Below are positions 3,408 through 58,483 of a stretch of 64,000 bases of DNA, one piece after another. The DNA lies in IMG/VR virus record IMGVR_UViG_3300022555_000015. The stretch is one strand, 5' to 3'. The notes beneath the pieces are model-generated. The model had not been told where the DNA came from, did no database searches, and saw only the letters and a list, made by a program, of their open reading frames with translations. Source of the DNA: a virus (lineage: Duplodnaviria; Heunggongvirae; Uroviricota; Caudoviricetes). Within the stretch, counting starts at the first letter, position 1; each line of letters opens with the position of its first letter. Both the position numbers and the translations under genes were made by a program.

Positions 3408-4646
3408 TTAGTGACCGTCCTTCTCACCGGCACGGCAGAGGTACTCATCACTGACGTACTTGAGGATCTTTCGGTAGGTGGAGCCGTCATCATCCACCAC
3501 TCGGGCTTCGGGCTCGGAGGTCACAACCACACCCTCTCGGACGTGGGTACCCCCAGGAACCGTAGTCTTGCCGTCTCGAAGTCCCATGACTACCTGGGCA
3601 TTGAAGGGGCCCCGGTAGAGCACAGGGACCGTTTCCACACCGAAGAGTTCTGCAATCTTCTGGATGACATCCCACGGTTGGAAAACGTGGTCAATCTCCA
3701 CGTCGAAGATGCGAACCTTCCGTTCACCATTGGCACACCCGTAGGTCAAGTCCTGGACCTTGGACCCGTAGATTTCACCATGAATGATGAAGTGCTCAGT
3801 GAAGGGCCACTTCCCGTTGTCATTCTGGAAGACCTCTCGGACCTTGGCCTCCGGGAAGTACTTCTGGCCCATCAAAGCGTACAAGGTAGTCCCATCCGGC
3901 TTCTTGGCCGTAGTGTGGGAGCCTACGATGTACTCCGGGGTGTCCTTGCCATCGAAGACCATGCCCACCCTGAAATTTGTCCCATGGATCTTCTCGGTGA
4001 GACGAATTGCCTCACCCTCCGTGAACCAAGACGGATGGTTCTTGGAGTTTTCGATGTCCGTGTAGTGGACGAAGCTTCCAGGAGACCTGACCATCTCACC
4101 CCTCATGTCCACGGGGACAGGGGGCTCATACCGCTCGATGTGCAGAGCATGGCAGATGAGAAGGCTCTCCAGGTCCACCTTGGTTTCGGCCAGGAGGATC
4201 TCCTGGGCAAATGGGTTATCCTTGTAGACTTCGGCCAGAACCGTCTTGGCATTCACTGAGGTATCTGCAAGGCAGTCCAGAAGACCCTTGGGGGCAGAGA
4301 TCACCAATCCCTGGCTGATCTGGCCCCGGAGCCGAACGGTCTTGACCCTGTGACCGGGCCTTCCGTCCGGGAACTTCTTGGTTGCCTTGAGGAATGCGAA
4401 CTCCGGGACCGCAGGGTCCAGGAGAGCGTCCAGGTGGATGTAGATGCCCTTGTAGACGGGAGGGTAGCCCTCTTCCAGAAGGTACTCCAGTTCCCCATCC
4501 ACTACAGACTGATGGGGAGAGCCCACCCAGTCGGAAGTACGCACCACACACTGCCAGCCCATGCCCTGAATTTTGGCAAGGCTCAGGGTGTCAGCGTTGG
4601 GGTGTTGGTCCAGGATGAACGTGACCTGTCGAGCAAGGATTTTCAT
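3408..4646 (-). CDS. ATP-dependent RNA ligase (Rnl2/Rnl5-like nucleotidyltransferase with N-terminal extension)
   Basis: covalent nucleotidyltransferase motifs EKIHGTNF (motif I, KxHGxN as in Rnl2/REL1 family), HGEIYG, REGVVVT (IV), ILKYV (V); start set to ATG 4644-4646 (MKILARQ..), 35 nt downstream of motif 4683-4698; ORF-track start 4808 lies upstream of that motif. Confidence 0.75.
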   Translation of the reverse strand: MKILARQVTFILDQHPNADTLSLAKIQGMGWQCVVRTSDWVGSPHQSVVDGELEYLLEEGYPPVYKGIYIHLDALLDPAVPEFAFLKATKKFPDGRPGHRVKTVRLRGQISQGLVISAPKGLLDCLADTSVNAKTVLAEVYKDNPFAQEILLAETKVDLESLLICHALHIERYEPPVPVDMRGEMVRSPGSFVHYTDIENSKNHPSWFTEGEAIRLTEKIHGTNFRVGMVFDGKDTPEYIVGSHTTAKKPDGTTLYALMGQKYFPEAKVREVFQNDNGKWPFTEHFIIHGEIYGSKVQDLTYGCANGERKVRIFDVEIDHVFQPWDVIQKIAELFGVETVPVLYRGPFNAQVVMGLRDGKTTVPGGTHVREGVVVTSEPEARVVDDDGSTYRKILKYVSDEYLCRAGEKDGH

Positions 4647-4682
4647 TTGGATTCTCCACCCTCTCTTACTCCGAGAGGGGAG

Positions 4683-4698
4683 AATCTTAACTGAAATC
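4683..4698 (-). promoter_or_regulatory. conserved upstream motif (gene orientation GATTTCAGTTAAGATT), candidate promoter
   Basis: AATCTTAACTGAAATC on plus strand; instance of ~20-copy motif. Confidence 0.45.
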
Positions 4699-4749
4699 TT
4701 CGATGTGGTGTGTAGTAGTTGTATGTGGGTAAGTTGTGTAGGGTGGGGT

Positions 4750-5175
4750 TTATTCCCCCTGTTCAATGATCCGCAAAGTCTTTCGTTCGATAGCACCCAG
4801 TTTGGCAAGTTTTGCCCAATCTACGTTATCCAGAGCATCCTGCATTTCTTCCATGATGCTCTCATTTTTCTTATATTCCTCTTGTACTTCTTCTTCTTCT
4901 CCAGTGAGGGAGAGGATCTGATCCTCTAGTTCAGTAATCTGCTCCTGGAGTTTTTCTTTCTTCTGATTGATGCCGCTGATCTTTGTTGAAAGCTCATCAT
5001 TCTCATTCTTGATATCTTGAATGCTACTTTCTGCTTCACTACTTGCGTCACTTGCTGCATCCTCAAAACTCTTGCCTTTGCTAGTTTTCAGGGTTGCAAG
5101 TAGAAGGATACGTTCCTTCGAACCCTTGGGGAGAGTAGATGCTAGACGGATGATCTTAGACCGTAGAATGTCCAT
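4750..5175 (-). CDS. coiled-coil acidic protein with N-terminal LRSKIIRLAS leader (leader-family member 1)
   Basis: ORF-track start at 5184 is GTG; ATG at 5173-5175 gives MDILRSKIIRLASTLPKG.. matching leader of 13558, 13931 and 61677 genes; strongly coiled-coil C-terminus (E/K/Q-rich). Confidence 0.5.
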   Translation of the reverse strand: MDILRSKIIRLASTLPKGSKERILLLATLKTSKGKSFEDAASDASSEAESSIQDIKNENDELSTKISGINQKKEKLQEQITELEDQILSLTGEEEEVQEEYKKNESIMEEMQDALDNVDWAKLAKLGAIERKTLRIIEQGE

Positions 5176-5828: not shown

Positions 5829-6043
5829 CAGCCTTCTCCAGAGATGCTTGTTTCAAACGTAAGGGTCAGGTGTGTAGCTCTCGACAACCGGGTGATGTCC
5901 TTGAGAAGCCACTTATGTTCCTTGAGGATCTTAGCTTCATCCTCATCCCCTAGAGCTAGGATAATCGTGAACTCGTTCCCATCACGAATCTCTCCCATGA
6001 GATTTCGTTTGTGGACTATAACCCTGGGCTCATTGGGCTTCAA
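5828..6043 (-). CDS. hypothetical protein (71 aa)
   Basis: ORF track. Confidence 0.45.
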   Translation of the reverse strand: MKPNEPRVIVHKRNLMGEIRDGNEFTIILALGDEDEAKILKEHKWLLKDITRLSRATHLTLTFETSISGEG

Positions 6044-6272
6044 CGATATGCCCCTTTGTGAAGTGAAACTCGTAAGAGATCACCCTACCCAGGTTGCTTG
6101 GGATGGGGGGTCCAAGCCATACCTCAGTACCATCTGGAAATGTACCCATGAGCTTGTCCCAGGTACCCCCTCTGAGAGGGGACCCATGACTTACTAGGGT
6201 GCCTTCTTCCAGATGCCGACGAAGGTGGTAGAGGGAACCTACCAGCCAATCAGACATTCTTCCGGTATTCAT
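6030..6272 (-). CDS. hypothetical protein (80 aa)
   Basis: ATG 6270-6272 preceded by GAGG RBS that directly abuts the 3' end of the intron-containing tRNA. Confidence 0.45.
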   Translation of the reverse strand: MNTGRMSDWLVGSLYHLRRHLEEGTLVSHGSPLRGGTWDKLMGTFPDGTEVWLGPPIPSNLGRVISYEFHFTKGHIVEAQ

Positions 6273-6282
6273 ATTCCTCTAG

Positions 6283-6564
6283 TAGGCCCTCCGGGACTTG
6301 AACCCGGAACCTTTCGATTATCGTCCCACTCCTTGTTTCCAAGGCCGGTTTCCCGTTGTGGGCTGGACTATATCTTCACCATCTCAGGTGTACTGGTATC
6401 TAGTCTCTACGGTGCCCCACCTTTCGGCAGGTTCCCTCGGTGTTGTCTTCGGCATGACCCGTTCAGGTTTTCACCGATATCCCAGTATCCACTCACAAAG
6501 TTCCTATTCCCTTGTGAGGCTCTAATGAAAAAGTCGAAGGCTCTGACCATTGAGCTAAGGGCCT
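6283..6564 (-). tRNA. tRNA gene interrupted by a ~209-nt group I intron in the anticodon loop (exon1 6531-6564, intron 6322-6530, exon2 6283-6321); anticodon probably UAU (Ile) if splice is U34|A35 after omega-G, UUU (Lys) not excluded
   Basis: exons give AGGCCCT-TA-GCTC-AATGGTCA-GAGC-C-TTCGA-CTT / ATAA-TCGAA-AGGTT-CCGGG-TTCAAGT-CCCGG-AGGGCCT-A with perfect acceptor, D, anticodon and T stems; intervening sequence carries group I R-like GTAGAGACTAGATACC and the canonical S element AAGATATAGTCC (P7 GACTA/TAGTC). Confidence 0.7.
6322..6530 (-). ncRNA. group I (IC3-like) self-splicing intron within tRNA
   Basis: AAGATATAGTCC S element and GACTA/TAGTC P7 pairing; inserted after wobble U34 like bacterial tRNA-Leu(UAA) introns. 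Confidence 0.6.
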
Positions 6565-6577
6565 AAACAGTAACCAC

Positions 6578-6826
6578 CTACTCTACAGTGAATTTCATCA
6601 CTAGGGACTCAGGTATTCGACCTTGCTCTTTACACTTCTTTAGTTCCTGCCGAAAACCTTCATTGAGGGTGGCAGTCAACTGTTCTGCTAAAGAAACCAT
6701 GGTTCCCTTCTCAATGGCATCTCGCCATTCAGTAAGTAGAGCCTCGAATCTCCAGAAGGCATCCGGTCCATGATGCTTGGATCGAATCTCAAAGAGTTCC
6801 AATGTCATTTCCATAGGGGACTTCAT
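6578..6826 (-). CDS. hypothetical protein (82 aa) between the two tRNAs
   Basis: ORF 6578..7015 trimmed to ATG 6824-6826 (MKSPMEMTLELFEIRSKHHG..) with AAGGAA RBS; longer ORF would run through the tRNA-Val gene. Confidence 0.5.
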   Translation of the reverse strand: MKSPMEMTLELFEIRSKHHGPDAFWRFEALLTEWRDAIEKGTMVSLAEQLTATLNEGFRQELKKCKEQGRIPESLVMKFTVE

Positions 6827-6836
6827 GGTTCCTTCT

Positions 6837-6911
6837 TGGTGGGCCGTGCAAGATTTGAACTTGCGACCTCCTCCGTGTAAGAGAGGCAATCTGCCGCTGA
6901 TATAACGGCCC
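6837..6911 (-). tRNA. tRNA-Val (anticodon UAC), CCA encoded
   Basis: GGGCCGT..ACGGCCC acceptor, anticodon stem CCTCT/GGAGG with loop CTTACAC, T arm GCAAG-TTCAAAT-CTTGC, then ACCA; D stem only 3 bp. Confidence 0.6.
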
Positions 6912-10460: not shown

Positions 10461-10504
10461 GAGATGTACCTTTTGATGGCTGTTACCCGGACTATGGCCG
10501 GTTG

Positions 10505-10577
10505 CGTTCCCATGGGGAATCGGACCCCAAACTTACGGATTTGAAATCCGCTGCTCTGCCAATTGAGCTATGGGAAC
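10505..10577 (-). tRNA. tRNA-Trp-like with anticodon UCA (reads UGA; opal suppressor or code-4-type tRNA-Trp)
   Basis: GTTCCCA-TA-GCTC-AATTGGCA-GAGC-A-GCGGA-TTTCAAA-TCCGT-AAGTT-TGGGG-TCCGATT-CCCCA-TGGGAAC-G; D arm near-identical to bacterial tRNA-Trp (TAGCTCAATTGGCAGAGCA); loop UUUCAAA gives U33 and anticodon UCA. Confidence 0.65.
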
Positions 10578-33713: not shown

Positions 33714-35027
33714 TCAGTCCTCACCCTTGATGACGGCAACGGGCTTGAGCTTCAACGTGACGGCTGCAAGACCCGCCATCTCAACCGTATCCAGGACGGC
33801 ATCCAGGTTCTTGTAACAGGGCCCCGACTCATCGAGGGGGATTTCACGGGTATTCACGAGGATGTCGAGTTCCTCCATCCTCCGATTGATGTACTCCTGG
33901 TCAAGCTTCTTCTTGGCCTGATTCCGACCCAGCCTTCGGCCCGCACCATGATTGACAGAGTAGGCAGACTCCTTGGCCCCAGCCAGGGGAAAGAGCACCG
34001 CAGCCCCTTCCTCCATAGACCCAGGGATCAAGATGGGGTGACCCGTCTCTTCCCACTTGGAGCCCATCAGGAGAGGGTGCTGTCCAGGGAATGCTCTGGT
34101 GGCACCCTTCCGATGAACGAACCGATCACCCTCCCGCTGAATGAGATTGTGGGAAATCTCATAGTAGAGTTCGGCCGTGCCACCGAAGACACTCTTGAGA
34201 GCCCCAATGACTTCCTTTGCAATCACCAGTCGGTTAGCGATTGCAAAGTTTGCTGCCCTGTTGTGATCATTCCAATAGAGCTTGCCGAGCTCGGAGTCAG
34301 CCTCCATGCACACCAAGTCCTCATCCTTCTTGGCAAGGCCCTGGGCAATGCACCCTCGGGAGAAGTAGTGCTGTGCCGTGACATAGCCCAGACCCCTGGA
34401 CCCCGTGTGGAGCATGATCCATACTTTGTCGTCATCTCCTACCTGCATCTCACAGAAATGGTTTCCTGACCCAAGAGATCCAAGTTGATTCCCCTTCATC
34501 ATTGCCATAGGAAGGGGGGGTGCCAAGTCAGGATCAACGGGAAGGCAATCTCTTTCAGAGTTCCCCCTGGACTCACCAAAAGCCAAGGCACCCCTATTGA
34601 TAATGTCAATGAGATCCTCTTTGGATATATCCTGAGAGCCTGCATGACCGAGACCAACACCAATGCGACTCTCTACCTTCTTCATCCAACGACGACGTAG
34701 GTCTTTGCTCTTAACATCTTCCCTTGTTAGAGATGTGCTGATTAAAACCATACCGCAAGATATGTCATACCCTGCTGCTGTAGGCAAAAGAGTACCTTCG
34801 GTTTCAATTACACAACCAATAGGTACACCGTAACCTGTGTGTACATCAGGTGTAATAACTACCTTCTTGACTCCTGGCAGTCCAGCGGCTCTTTCAATCT
34901 GAGCCCAGGCATTCTCTTCTGATGCCTGAAAGAGAAGATCACTGAGAAAGACACTCACTGGACAGGGGAGTCCCTCGACAACCCAATGTCCCTCAGAAAC
35001 CTTCGTTGCTCTGTCCTTGAGACTCAT
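33714..35027 (-). CDS. rtcB: RtcB-family 3'-phosphate/2',3'-cyclic phosphate RNA ligase
   Basis: ITPDVHTGYGVPIG, GSGNHFCEMQ, LHTGSRGLG, VNHGAGR: hallmark metal and GTP-binding motifs of RtcB. Confidence 0.8.
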   Translation of the reverse strand: MSLKDRATKVSEGHWVVEGLPCPVSVFLSDLLFQASEENAWAQIERAAGLPGVKKVVITPDVHTGYGVPIGCVIETEGTLLPTAAGYDISCGMVLISTSLTREDVKSKDLRRRWMKKVESRIGVGLGHAGSQDISKEDLIDIINRGALAFGESRGNSERDCLPVDPDLAPPLPMAMMKGNQLGSLGSGNHFCEMQVGDDDKVWIMLHTGSRGLGYVTAQHYFSRGCIAQGLAKKDEDLVCMEADSELGKLYWNDHNRAANFAIANRLVIAKEVIGALKSVFGGTAELYYEISHNLIQREGDRFVHRKGATRAFPGQHPLLMGSKWEETGHPILIPGSMEEGAAVLFPLAGAKESAYSVNHGAGRRLGRNQAKKKLDQEYINRRMEELDILVNTREIPLDESGPCYKNLDAVLDTVEMAGLAAVTLKLKPVAVIKGED

Positions 35028-57234: not shown

Positions 57235-57674
57235 TGAAGACCCTCTGCCTATGCCTTTTGATGGGGTGTTCCCAGCTATCTCCTGAAGATCGGGAAGCAC
57301 CGGCACCTGTGCATATCCCTGTGCATACCTCACCGGCACCTAGCCCTGTCCCTGTCCCTGCATCACCGGCACCTGTACCTGCCACAACGGATATCACCAA
57401 CGCTCGGTCGGCTGCAATCCATGAGGTCTGGAACATCTCGCAGAGGTCTCCAGCCGCAGAACGGGGACAGATTGTAGTGACGTGCAGGGCAGTTACAGCG
57501 ATGAATGCCATCTGCACGGCTAACTACCTCCAACTCCCCACCCTGAGAATGGAGTGCGAGAACGGCCCCTACCCTTACAACGGTGGGTGCGTGATTCTGG
57601 GGGATGCCAACCCTCCAACGGATGAACTCACGGCATGGGACCGACACTTCATCCCAGGTTTGATCGTTCACTAG
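57234..57674 (+). CDS. lipoprotein with Pro-rich linker, paralog of 58480..58887
   Basis: MKTLCLCLLMGCS lipobox; LRMECENGPYPYNGGCVILGD vs LTLMCHNGPYPYNHGCVIPLY. Confidence 0.5.
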   Translation: MKTLCLCLLMGCSQLSPEDREAPAPVHIPVHTSPAPSPVPVPASPAPVPATTDITNARSAAIHEVWNISQRSPAAERGQIVVTCRAVTAMNAICTANYLQLPTLRMECENGPYPYNGGCVILGDANPPTDELTAWDRHFIPGLIVH

Positions 57675-57682
57675 AGGTAACT

Positions 57683-58483
57683 ATGCTTGTTCACGTCATT
57701 GGTACTGGGGATGCCTTCTCCAAGACTCGCTTCGGGTCATCTCTACTGGTCCAAGCTGAAGGTGGGGCTATTCTCATTGATACACCCCCGGCACTGAGCC
57801 ATGCCCTCCGAAGCTACCATTCCACAATGGGTCTGGATGACATCACAACGGTGTTGATCACACACCTTCACTCCGATCATGTCGGAGGGTTGGAGCAACT
57901 GCTCTTCCACCAGAGACTCGTCAGGGGTCAGAAGATCAGGATTCTCGGGGCACCGGAAGTCCTGGAGAACCTGTGGGGTCACACCCTCAAGGGAGGGATG
58001 GGACAGATTACTAGCCCTCTCACGGGTAAGCCTCTGGCAATGCAGATGGATGACTACGCAACCCTGGTTCCAATCAAGCCTGGGGAGAGATTTCAGGCTA
58101 CTGACAACCTGGAAGTACAGCTTCATCTCACGAAGCATCACATCCCGACAACTGCGGTCAAGATCACCGAGACTGGTGAAAAGACCTTTGCTTACAGTTC
58201 CGACACGGCTTTCAGTCCAGAAATCATCGAATGGATGGATGCCTATGTGATGGTCCATGAAGTCGGAGCCGGGAATGGCTGGGGGGCTATCGAAGCAACC
58301 CATACGTCCCTAACCAAGCTCATGGAGTTGCCAGCTAGTGTCAGGGAGAAGATGTACCTGACGCACTACTGCGATGCTTTCCCGATTGAGGTCTGTCCTA
58401 TCCCATGTCTCAGGGACGGTAACTGCCTGACTATCAACTTGAGGGAATTCCCTGCGGGTCATCCTTCCACAAGGGACACATGA
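57683..58483 (+). CDS. metallo-beta-lactamase-fold hydrolase, RNase Z/ElaC-like
   Basis: HxHxDH in ITHLHSDHVGG; N-terminal VIGTGDAFSKTRFGSSLL resembles RNase Z LGTGxGxPSxxRNVSS motif; trimmed to MLVHVIG at 57683. Confidence 0.6.
   Translation: MLVHVIGTGDAFSKTRFGSSLLVQAEGGAILIDTPPALSHALRSYHSTMGLDDITTVLITHLHSDHVGGLEQLLFHQRLVRGQKIRILGAPEVLENLWGHTLKGGMGQITSPLTGKPLAMQMDDYATLVPIKPGERFQATDNLEVQLHLTKHHIPTTAVKITETGEKTFAYSSDTAFSPEIIEWMDAYVMVHEVGAGNGWGAIEATHTSLTKLMELPASVREKMYLTHYCDAFPIEVCPIPCLRDGNCLTINLREFPAGHPSTRDT

Follow-up and report, generated by a model that had tools for sequence, protein, structure and literature searches.

The minus strand of the 64-kb stretch of viral DNA analysed here (the window) raises, at positions 6283–6564, the question of whether a phage tRNA gene may be split in its anticodon loop by a group I intron and, if so, which anticodon the mature tRNA would carry. 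The reading that we favour, with a probability of roughly 85%, is that this locus encodes a tRNA-Ile with the anticodon UAU, cut between U34 and A35 by a 209-nt group I intron that has no ORF and that would be removed by splicing, and that the replicon is most likely a large phage. An earlier note on this DNA had placed a split tRNA gene at exactly these positions, and we found it there.

The 5′ exon (6531–6564, minus strand; AGGCCCTTAGCTCAATGGTCAGAGCCTTCGACTT) provides the 5′ strand of the acceptor stem, the D arm, the 5′ strand of the anticodon stem and the loop residues C32, U33 and U34, the last of which, at position 6531, is U(-1) of the 5′ splice site. The 3′ exon (6283–6321, minus strand; ATAATCGAAAGGTTCCGGGTTCAAGTCCCGGAGGGCCTA) provides the loop residues A35, U36, A37 and A38, the 3′ strand of the anticodon stem, a 5-nt variable loop, the T arm, the 3′ strand of the acceptor stem and the discriminator A73; CCA is not encoded and would be added post-transcriptionally. 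Between the exons lies the intron (6322–6530, minus strand), 209 nt of the group I IC3 tRNA type with no ORF and with omega-G at 6322. As had been claimed, the two halves rebuild a cloverleaf: joined, they give a 73-nt molecule that ARAGORN in its standard mode called as tRNA-Ile(tat), as it did for three relatives described below, and with introns allowed the program reported the gene as split, at c[6282,6564], by an intron of 209 nt. Searches of the whole window with default ARAGORN and with the Rfam tRNA model both missed the gene.

The 282-nt precursor was 100% identical in four independent assemblies, which excludes an assembly artefact. No intron-less allele was found in the same phage; all the listed contigs with both flanking genes keep a spacing of 305 nt, and the four of them that have DNA carry the identical precursor. 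The gene sits in a same-strand array between the gene for tRNA-Val(UAC) (6837–6911, minus strand), which is its upstream neighbour, and small ORFs, and the two tRNAs are probably on one transcript. In LR745208, the genome of a 485-kb phage, a Val(UAC) gene likewise lies upstream of a split Ile gene.

The earlier note had taken the insert for a group I intron of about 209 nt, of the cyanobacterial tRNA-Leu(UAA) type, and had proposed an Infernal search with the Rfam Intron_gpI model (RF00028) as a check. The default search of the whole window returned nothing at the gathering score of 50, and a relaxed search of 1 kb gave a full-length match of 22.3 bits (E = 0.003), below that cut-off, but a family covariance model (R1) matched 6313–6538 on the minus strand over its full length with 116.5 bits (E = 2e-29), well outside what chance would give. 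Model R1 was built from related tRNA-Leu(UAA) and tRNA(UCA) introns, the window and its three closest (Ile-type) relatives being left out, and it had no other match in the window. Two relatives, L004 and L005, exceed the Rfam cut-off, at 62.1 and 57.3 bits, respectively, and a threshold of 20 bits has been used for Intron_gpI matches inside split tRNA calls (Williams 2020, 10.1101/2020.01.27.920355).

The family alignment agrees with model R1 on the intron type. Helices were defined on the window and then counted over 18 aligned sequences: 89.2% of the cells were paired, compared with 32–43% when the partners were slid, 36 of the 58 pairs change on both sides, and the observed values were reached in none of 500 shuffles. 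A full group I fold, from P1 to P9, is supported by the alignment, with P3 and P7 in the canonical pseudoknot order, and the intron aligns with tRNA-Leu(UAA) introns over its whole length, junctions included. Comparison at the sequence level thus supports homology with the bacterial and plastid tRNA-Leu(UAA) intron of class ‘Leu.3Ug’, and the subgroup label IC3 is taken from that class (Williams 2020). In strict Leu.3Ug, the host gene is tRNA-Leu(UAA), whereas here it is a class I tRNA with the anticodon UAU on an Ile-type body, and we therefore assign the intron to a sister class, ‘Ile(UAU).3Ug’.

The helices, all on the minus strand, begin with P1 (6520–6533), in which exon residues C32-U33-U34 and the first intron base (6533–6530) face the internal guide AGAG (6523–6520), U6531 pairing with G6522 as a U-G wobble; across the whole family, 75% of the P1 cells are paired. 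The 9-bp P2 hairpin (6518–6510 with 6500–6492) shows changes on both sides in all nine pairs, and P3 (6487–6482 with 6396–6391) in all six. Between the two strands of P3 lie the P4–P6 domain and the 5′ strand of P7, an order that creates the pseudoknot of group I introns. P4 (6477–6472 with 6442–6437) is paired in 100% of cells, five of its pairs being invariant and one varying only between G-U and G-C, and inside it lie P5 (6466–6465 with 6448–6447) and P5a (6461–6459 with 6452–6450). The P6 hairpin, closed by a GAAA tetraloop (6431–6426 with 6421–6416), aligns poorly across the whole family, with 54% of cells paired, and is conserved among the four Ile-type introns. The guanosine-binding helix P7 (GACUA at 6405–6401 with UAGUC at 6370–6366) is invariant in 18 of 18 sequences; it lies within the R element (GTAGAGACTAGATACC, 6410–6395) and the S element (AAGATATAGTCC, 6376–6365) and encloses the 3′ strand of P3 together with P8 (6390–6387 with 6380–6377), three of whose four pairs change on both sides. 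The verbatim S element, the R-like element and the P7 pairing GACTA/TAGTC that had been noticed before are all present at these positions. At the 3′ end, P9 (6362–6358 with 6329–6325; both-side changes in two of five pairs) carries P9a (6355–6353 with 6348–6346) and P9b (6344–6340 with 6335–6331; both-side changes in five of five pairs), each with a GAAA loop.

Core helices that are all intact, with P7 and the R and S elements invariant, are not what would be expected of a decayed relic intron that no longer splices and has left a tRNA pseudogene. Such a relic would fit the weak Rfam score, the absence of a homing endonuclease from the intron and the rarity of AUA in the window, through which loss of the tRNA might be tolerated. 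However, the locus scores highly against the family model and does not vary between several independent assemblies. At four loci whose exons have diverged to 64–77% identity, moreover, the intron and the tRNA stems both show compensatory changes, and we regard decay as very unlikely.

If the intron is intact, the position of its junctions decides the anticodon. All 18 aligned sequences have the U(-1)-G wobble, and the terminal omega-G column, occupied by G6322 in the window, is invariant; 34/35 is the only loop position that gives both. The splice would therefore fall after the wobble residue U34 and the mature loop would be CUU|AUAA, with the anticodon UAU, as had been anticipated; the body is of the Ile type, and the E. 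coli tRNA that matches it best is tRNA-Ile2, which reads AUA. Junctions giving UUU (Lys), which the earlier note had named as evidence that would speak against its reading, were rejected, since the intron would end in A or U. One base upstream, at 33/34, the intron would leave an ordinary tRNA-Ile(GAU), and this is the placement that ARAGORN reports in its intron mode, as tRNA-Ile(gat). A product with GAU can likewise be folded into a valid tRNA-Ile, and GAU is the standard Ile anticodon of bacteria. With this placement, however, the last intron base would be C in the window and A, A and U, respectively, in the three relatives, rather than the invariant G, and the P1 partner of G is U34 in all 18 family members. 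Moreover, the independent model R1 places both junctions at 34/35, aligned with those of the UCA and Leu(UAA) introns, and ARAGORN itself called UAU for the relatives L001 and L016. Group I splice-site rules are not modelled by ARAGORN, for which reason its calls were re-mapped by the U(-1)/omega-G rule in the study of Williams (2020). A mature tRNA-Ile(GAU) is thus highly improbable.

Splicing to the UAU product would probably start from a precursor cut out of a longer transcript, because the gene lies in a same-strand array. In P1, exon residues C32-U33-U34 would pair with the guide GAG, which would put U34 in the U-G wobble; exogenous guanosine would attack after U6531, the terminal G6322 would then take the P7 guanosine site, and the freed 3′-OH of U34 would attack after G6322, joining the exons with the loop CUUAUAA. 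The window intron would, by this scheme, be self-splicing. Removal of the insert by proteins, namely cutting by an endonuclease and then joining by the RtcB or Rnl-type ligases of the same window, might be suggested by the genes for RtcB (33714–35027) and an RNA ligase (3408–4808) encoded nearby and, in the relative L045, by an RNA ligase approximately 5 kb from the split tRNA gene; yet the group I fold of the insert is complete, U(-1) and omega-G included, and for many of the relatives that carry the intron no ligase was seen in the flanking DNA examined. In addition, 34/35 differs from the canonical site of protein-spliced tRNA introns, which is one base 3′ of the anticodon (PMC4090602), and phage RtcB and Rnl are generally read as repairing tRNAs cut by host defence (Al-Shayeb 2020). 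Protein splicing therefore appears exceedingly improbable, and we retain the ribozyme scheme.

The spliced product best matches annotated tRNA-Ile genes and has matches in all 5426 E. coli genomes; the listed matches cover up to 97% of the query at 78–80% identity, and the one from K-12 is tRNA-Ile2, with the anticodon CAT (CAU). The window tRNA has A73, C4-G69, U12-A23 and C29-G41, all of which are IleRS identity elements that were reportedly established by Nureki and colleagues in 1994. The 73-nt product would resemble the minor AUA-reading tRNA-Ile2 with U34 replacing C34 and, because U34 stands in place of C34, it would be expected to read AUA without lysidine synthesis by TilS. In the predicted genes of the window, which are crude gene calls, AUA is rare, at 48 of the 886 Ile codons, and the window itself shows no evident need for a tRNA that reads it. 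The suggestion that a tRNA-Ile(UAU) is unusual holds for bacteria but not for viral contigs, since those in IMG/VR contain at least 116 uninterrupted tRNA-Ile(UAU) genes with the same CUUAUAA loop. These genes have the same Ile-type D arm and no intron, and those listed reach 80% identity to the spliced product of the window and 83% to that of L001. The anticodon is therefore not the surprising part, a tRNA-Ile(UAU) being in itself ordinary for phages.

The intron, rather than the tRNA, sets the locus apart, and it has relatives. Three other distinct split tRNA-Ile(UAU) genes, L001 (in LR745208), L016 and L045, share the CUU|AUAA junction, and compensatory changes, read from the sequences, separate the acceptor, anticodon and T stems of the four. 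Introns of this type are also found in opal-suppressor (UCA) and Leu(UAA) tRNAs of phages, and phage DnaB and NrdD genes are interrupted by the same intron family (L053 and L054). Intron-containing tRNAs recur, unannotated, in viral contigs and in deposited jumbo-phage genomes; the split tRNA genes of the cultured jumbo phage Atu_ph07, for instance, are absent from its annotation. The lineage occupies the C32-U33-U34 anticodon loops of phage tRNAs of three kinds, Ile-UAU, opal-suppressor UCA and Leu-UAA, a range of targets that the shortness of the P1 guide would explain. The short guide also suggests that the intron may have spread by reverse splicing or recombination rather than with a homing endonuclease. 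Synteny between the window and the relatives was confined to the RNA ligase, common to L045. Among the candidates set aside, the ARAGORN intron-mode calls L007 (Lys), L010 (Pyl), L012 (Gln), L023 (Tyr), L037 (Leu) and L177 (Phe) were discarded as spurious; in L177 the intron is genuine (109.5 bits) and the 3′ junction motif is there, but no convincing tRNA exons accompany them.

Compared with the cyanobacterial and plastid tRNA-Leu(UAA) intron, the window intron occupies the same site (U34/A35, after C32-U33-U34), uses the same P1 guide (GAG with CUU, including the U-G wobble) and has the same R and S core and the same P1–P9 architecture; in both, the anticodon stem holds the exons and an ORF is absent. 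The host, however, is here a class I tRNA-Ile(UAU), in what is probably a huge phage, rather than a class II tRNA-Leu in a cyanobacterium or plastid, and the peripheral helices of the window intron are different, with a longer P5a and, at P9, a three-way junction that has two GAAA loops. The Azoarcus tRNA-Ile2(CAU) intron (‘Ile2.5Ug’, IC3) is similar in being approximately 200 nt long, ORF-less and located in the anticodon loop of an AUA-reading tRNA-Ile, and we take the core motif GUAGAGACUAGA to be common to both. The Azoarcus intron is bacterial, whereas that of the window is probably from a phage, and the Azoarcus tRNA keeps C34 and depends on lysidine, whereas the window tRNA has U34. They differ also in position, the Azoarcus intron being inserted after five loop bases (Williams 2020) and the window intron at 34/35. 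The introns of T4 td, nrdB and nrdD and of Twort, SPO1, Bastille, crAss-like and Jug phages are self-splicing group I introns and likewise phage-borne, but they interrupt ORFs, often with homing endonucleases, whereas the target in the window is a tRNA anticodon loop, and the classical phage ORF introns belong to other subgroups.

Several lines of evidence point to a large phage (> 200 kb) as the most likely replicon. The closest relatives are found in IMG/VR contigs and huge phages, including LR745208, and the carrier contigs reach the 0.2–1 Mb class. The window itself is a dense, ORFan-rich array with nearly all genes on one strand, and it encodes an RNA ligase, RtcB, an Apyc1-like (anti-Pycsar-like) protein and a PHROG dNMP phosphatase. 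The assignment is indirect, because no capsid, terminase or tail gene was recognised among the 20 window proteins scanned. Comparison of ORF lengths under codes 4 and 15 (UGA/UAG recoding) was uninformative at 52% GC. These scanned proteins, together with the finding that, in 50,697 deposited phage records and with protein searches included, the window had no close relative beyond the tRNA and intron, would be compatible with a real element in cellular DNA, whether a bacterial chromosome, a plasmid or a prophage remnant. Against such an origin, which we think very improbable, stand the nearest relatives and the phage-like content (PHROG matches, the anti-Pycsar-like protein and one-strand ORFans), and also the result of a search for the Ile-type intron pattern in 185,579 representative bacterial and archaeal genomes, which gave no true match: one of the two patterns used found nothing, and the lone match of the second (L176, in an archaeal MAG) was rejected by the family model and is attributable to chance. 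A large phage remains the preferred replicon.

The mechanism is an ordinary one; what had not previously been described is group I introns in phage tRNA genes, and the window is one of a recurring family of them. According to a review of group I introns in bacteria published in 2014, the phage introns seen until then all lay in protein-coding genes, although phages have many tRNA genes (PMC3984707). We found no report of them in the searchable literature, coverage of which is incomplete and leaves their absence unproven; introns are unmentioned in the paper on huge phages that covers 485-kb and 735-kb phages (Al-Shayeb 2020), and the supplementary tables of a 2026 bacterial survey, in the part available, contain Ile2 (CAT) cases and no ‘TAT’ among the entries listed. 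To call intron-containing phage tRNAs uncommon, as the earlier note did, understates both the literature, in which none was known (PMC3984707), and their occurrence, which is recurrent but unannotated. The gap in the literature is in part an annotation artefact, because standard tRNA finders and the default Rfam threshold miss split genes.

A further idea, unlikely as we judge it, is that a single mobile IC3 lineage has specialised on the CUU loops of phage decoding tRNAs and is not a neutral selfish insertion. It would be kept because splicing gates the maturation of code-altering tRNAs during infection, either as a ribozyme checkpoint on translation or code switching or by shielding the gene, or the precursor's anticodon loop, from nucleases of the host or of rival phages. 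The family raises the questions of how an ORF-less intron moves among the CUU-loop tRNAs of phages and whether splicing regulates the supply of special decoders. In practice, the tRNA inventories of large phages are undercounted, and some of the missed genes are opal suppressors, which are relevant to calling the genetic code of a phage.

Read on the minus strand, the split tRNA gene consists of a 5′ exon at 6564-6531 (AGGCCCTTAGCTCAATGGTCAGAGCCTTCGACTT), which supplies an acceptor strand, the D arm, one strand of the anticodon stem and the loop bases C-U-U, and a 3′ exon at 6321-6283 (ATAATCGAAAGGTTCCGGGTTCAAGTCCCGGAGGGCCTA), which supplies the remaining four bases of the loop, the strand that completes the anticodon stem, a variable loop of 5 nt, the T arm (TTCAAGT), the other acceptor strand and a discriminator A; CCA is not encoded at its 3′ end. 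The 209-nt intervening sequence (6530-6322, minus strand) carries the R element GTAGAGACTAGATACC at 6410-6395 and the S element AAGATATAGTCC at 6376-6365, both on the minus strand, and the coordinates and motifs reported in the earlier note all proved correct in this reading. Neither default ARAGORN nor the Rfam tRNA model detected the split gene in the 64-kb window, where they reported only a tRNA-Val(UAC) at 6837-6911 (minus strand) and an uninterrupted UCA-anticodon tRNA. With introns allowed, ARAGORN did return the gene, at c[6282,6564], and gave its intron a length of 209 nt; in ordinary mode it called the exon halves, joined in silico, as tRNA-Ile(tat).

The Rfam generic group I model, the check suggested in the earlier note, gave no match in the window at the gathering score but reached 22.3 bits (E = 0.003) in a relaxed 1-kb search, with the full model length aligned. 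Because this model was weak on the window intron, relatives were sought; 43 viral contigs of IMG/VR contain the R...S pattern, as does the uncultured phage LR745208 (485 kb). Two of the relatives, L004 and L005, are tRNA-Leu(UAA) introns that lie above the Rfam cut-off, at 62.1 and 57.3 bits, and thereby tie the family of the window intron to the curated one. We aligned 18 short family members with their anticodon stems and wrote the helices seen in the window onto this alignment; their order – P1, P2, P3, P4, P5/P5a, P4′, P6, P7, P3′, P8, P7′ and P9/P9a/P9b – matches the canonical group I topology and contains the P3/P7 pseudoknot. Standard pairs filled 89.2% of cells, compared with 32-43% in a slid control with partners moved by 1-3 columns; 36 of the 58 pairs showed changes on both sides, and none of 500 shuffles attained any of the observed measures. 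Covariation was seen in every pair of P2 (9/9), P3 (6/6) and P9b (5/5) and in three of the four pairs of P8, while in the catalytic core P7 was invariant and P4 was 100% paired, one of its pairs varying between G-U and G-C. An independent test of the window came from R1, a covariance model built from 14 Leu- and UCA-type sequences only (alignment A2), which gave a single, full-length match in the 64 kb at 6313-6538 on the minus strand (116.5 bits, E = 2e-29). This score and the covarying canonical fold bear out the earlier proposal of a group I intron, an identification that we regard as secure; the putative IC3 label was assigned by homology to the classical class of Leu introns (Williams 2020, 10.1101/2020.01.27.920355) rather than by a subgroup model.

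Eight junctions are conceivable in the 7-nt anticodon loop, and in CUU|AUAA alone is the 5′ site preceded by U and the last intron base a G. The U concerned (U6531) pairs with G6522 in P1, a U-G pair found in 18 of the 18 aligned introns; the terminal G (6322) forms an invariant column of the same alignment, and R1 aligns the window junctions with those of the Leu and UCA introns. As no other junction satisfies both rules, the mature loop is predicted to be CUUAUAA, with the anticodon UAU, in agreement with the splice after U34 that had been proposed. ARAGORN placed the junction at 33/34, giving the anticodon GAU, but the intron would then end in C in the window and, in its three closest relatives, in A, A and U; splice-site rules are absent from ARAGORN's modelling, for which reason the tFind pipeline of Williams re-maps its calls using the U(−1)/ωG rule (10.1101/2020.01.27.920355). 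Junctions giving the anticodon UUU, the contrary outcome named in the earlier note, were also rejected, as the intron would have to end in A or U.

Each of the 5426 complete E. coli genomes contains a match to the spliced window sequence; the matches listed are annotated tRNA-Ile genes, 78-80% identical to it along as much as 97% of its length. An example from K-12 has the anticodon CAT and is the minor, lysidine-dependent, AUA-reading tRNA-Ile2. The window tRNA also has A73, C4-G69, U12-A23 and C29-G41, which are reported to be E. coli IleRS identity elements (Nureki et al. 1994). Uninterrupted tRNAs that share its Ile-type D arm and CUUAUAA loop account for at least 116 ARAGORN tRNA-Ile(tat) calls in viral contigs and, among the matches listed, are up to 80% identical to the spliced product of the window and up to 83% identical to that of L001, a split gene in LR745208. 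Such abundance makes the tRNA ordinary for phages, although unusual for bacteria; the intron, not the tRNA-Ile(UAU) itself, is the unusual part.

Three further distinct split tRNA-Ile(UAU) genes were found: L001 (the same sequence as L028, L047 and L048), L016 (the same as L046) and L045. All four have the CUU|AUAA junction, and the gene in LR745208 also comes after a tRNA-Val(UAC). Compensatory substitutions separate their acceptor, anticodon and T stems, so that the ability of the exons to fold is preserved. Identity is 78-83% among the introns but 64-77% among the exons, which hints either that the intron has been moving between tRNA-Ile(UAU) genes or that the ribozyme is more tightly constrained than the tRNA hosting it. 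Proteins encoded in the flanks are unrelated among the four loci, except for an RNA ligase common to the window and L045. Two scans of 185,579 representative bacterial and archaeal genomes gave no true match to the Ile-type intron; one was blank, and the single match from the other is rejected by R1 and was judged to be due to chance.

Crude, codon-usage-based calls gave 113 genes in the window, 95 of them on the minus strand. The split gene lies between two small minus-strand ORFs with no family match, at 6578-6826 (82 aa) and 6030-6272 (80 aa), the start codon of the latter (6272) being 10 nt past the tRNA discriminator, with GAGG between. No convincing promoter or terminator flanks the split tRNA and, given the nearby ORF start, the tRNA is probably cut from a longer transcript. 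Contigs of many samples, ranging up to the 0.2-1 Mb size class, carry both ORFs, and the window is, on indirect evidence, probably part of a huge phage; a scan of 20 of its proteins showed neither a capsid nor a terminase gene. All four other assemblies read at this locus carry the 282-nt precursor with 100% identity, and no intron-less allele was seen. AUA is rare, at 48 of the 886 Ile codons in the crude calls, and a need for AUA decoding is not apparent within the window.

An Rnl-type RNA ligase with a PHA02142 OB domain (3408-4808, minus strand) and RtcB (33714-35027, minus strand; Pfam 325 bits) resemble a tRNA-repair pair near tRNA genes; the homologous ligase of L045 (31% identity) lies approximately 5 kb from its split tRNA-Ile. 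A hydrolase of metallo-β-lactamase fold (57635-58483, plus strand) scores 76.5 bits (cut-off 50) for the Apyc1 anti-Pycsar family, making it a candidate for phage anti-defence, and the other scanned proteins include a radical-SAM protein, an ADP-ribosylglycohydrolase, a PHROG dNMP phosphatase, DUF1643, DUF7873 and many ORFans. The UCA-anticodon tRNA (10504-10577, minus strand; discriminator G; Rfam tRNA 66.8 bits), labelled SeC by ARAGORN, shows partial likeness to Vibrio-phage tRNA-Trp genes; despite its presence, TGA is the commonest stop (53 of the 113 crude calls), and any use of this tRNA as a UGA suppressor may lie elsewhere in the genome. Rfam 'Plastid-ycf2 5′UTR' matches on the plus strand, antisense to tRNA-Val in the window (6839-6911) and to Rfam tRNA matches in L028 (1192-1264) and L016 (699-773), were sub-threshold (23.6-48.2 bits against 65.7) and look like a model artefact.

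The same junction analysis, run on 43 viral loci, placed the intron at 34/35 in at least 16 opal-suppressor-type tRNA(UCA) genes, with CUU|CAAA or CUU|CAAC (L002, L012, L013, L018, L019, L025, L030, L032, L036, L037, L038 and others, on IMG/VR contigs), and in 10 tRNA-Leu(UAA) genes; the intron also interrupts several protein-coding genes. Some of the split tRNA(UCA) genes have long variable arms, and some of their introns carry inserts of 300-600 nt. Searching deposited genomes with R1 and ARAGORN revealed two unannotated split tRNA-Leu(UAA) genes, one in the cultured 490-kb Agrobacterium phage Atu_ph07 (MF403008.1, about 112890-113251; L051 953-1314; 278-nt intron, R1 128 bits), whose record has no tRNA feature in the region and a short 'hypothetical protein' CDS overlapping part of it, and one in the metagenomic 735-kb phage LR756501.1 (L052 1097-1387; 205-nt intron, R1 139 bits). 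A related intron (R1 74 bits) lies in the DnaB-type helicase gene of the crAss-like Kolpuevirus OQ198718.1 (L053), adjoined by a GIY endonuclease gene, and another apparently in NrdD of Pseudaeromonas phage KLEP7 (OM654377.1; L054), where a blastn match without an R1 match falls between two annotated NrdD fragments; in phages, the lineage thus moves between targets of both kinds, tRNA and protein-coding. C32-U33-U34, the bases paired by the P1 guide, are common to all tRNA hosts, and a guide target this short would plausibly account for the range of hosts.

Sequence analysis shows the fold, the bases at the splice sites and Ile-type exons that remain able to fold; the steps of splicing and maturation are inferred from the established chemistry of the family. 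Guanosine would attack after U6531, ωG6322 would dock in P7 and the exons would be ligated to give CUUAUAA; after RNase P and 3′ processing and CCA addition, the spliced tRNA would be charged by IleRS and would read AUA without TilS. Both the mechanism and the place of insertion belong to a known class. What is novel, as far as the searchable literature goes, is the tRNA species that hosts the intron and its setting in a phage; coverage of that literature is incomplete, so that an earlier description is possible. All phage introns known to Hausner et al. 2014 (PMC3984707) were in protein genes, the huge-phage paper (Al-Shayeb 2020) used tRNAscan-SE for tRNAs and does not mention introns, and bacterial surveys, including Williams 2020 (10.1101/2020.01.27.920355), give Leu, Arg, fMet, Ile2(CAU) and others as intron hosts. 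Split opal suppressors would escape default tRNA finders, which matters for calling the genetic code of a phage, and the most useful consequence of the finding is that the tRNA inventories of large phages, suppressor tRNAs included, are undercounted.
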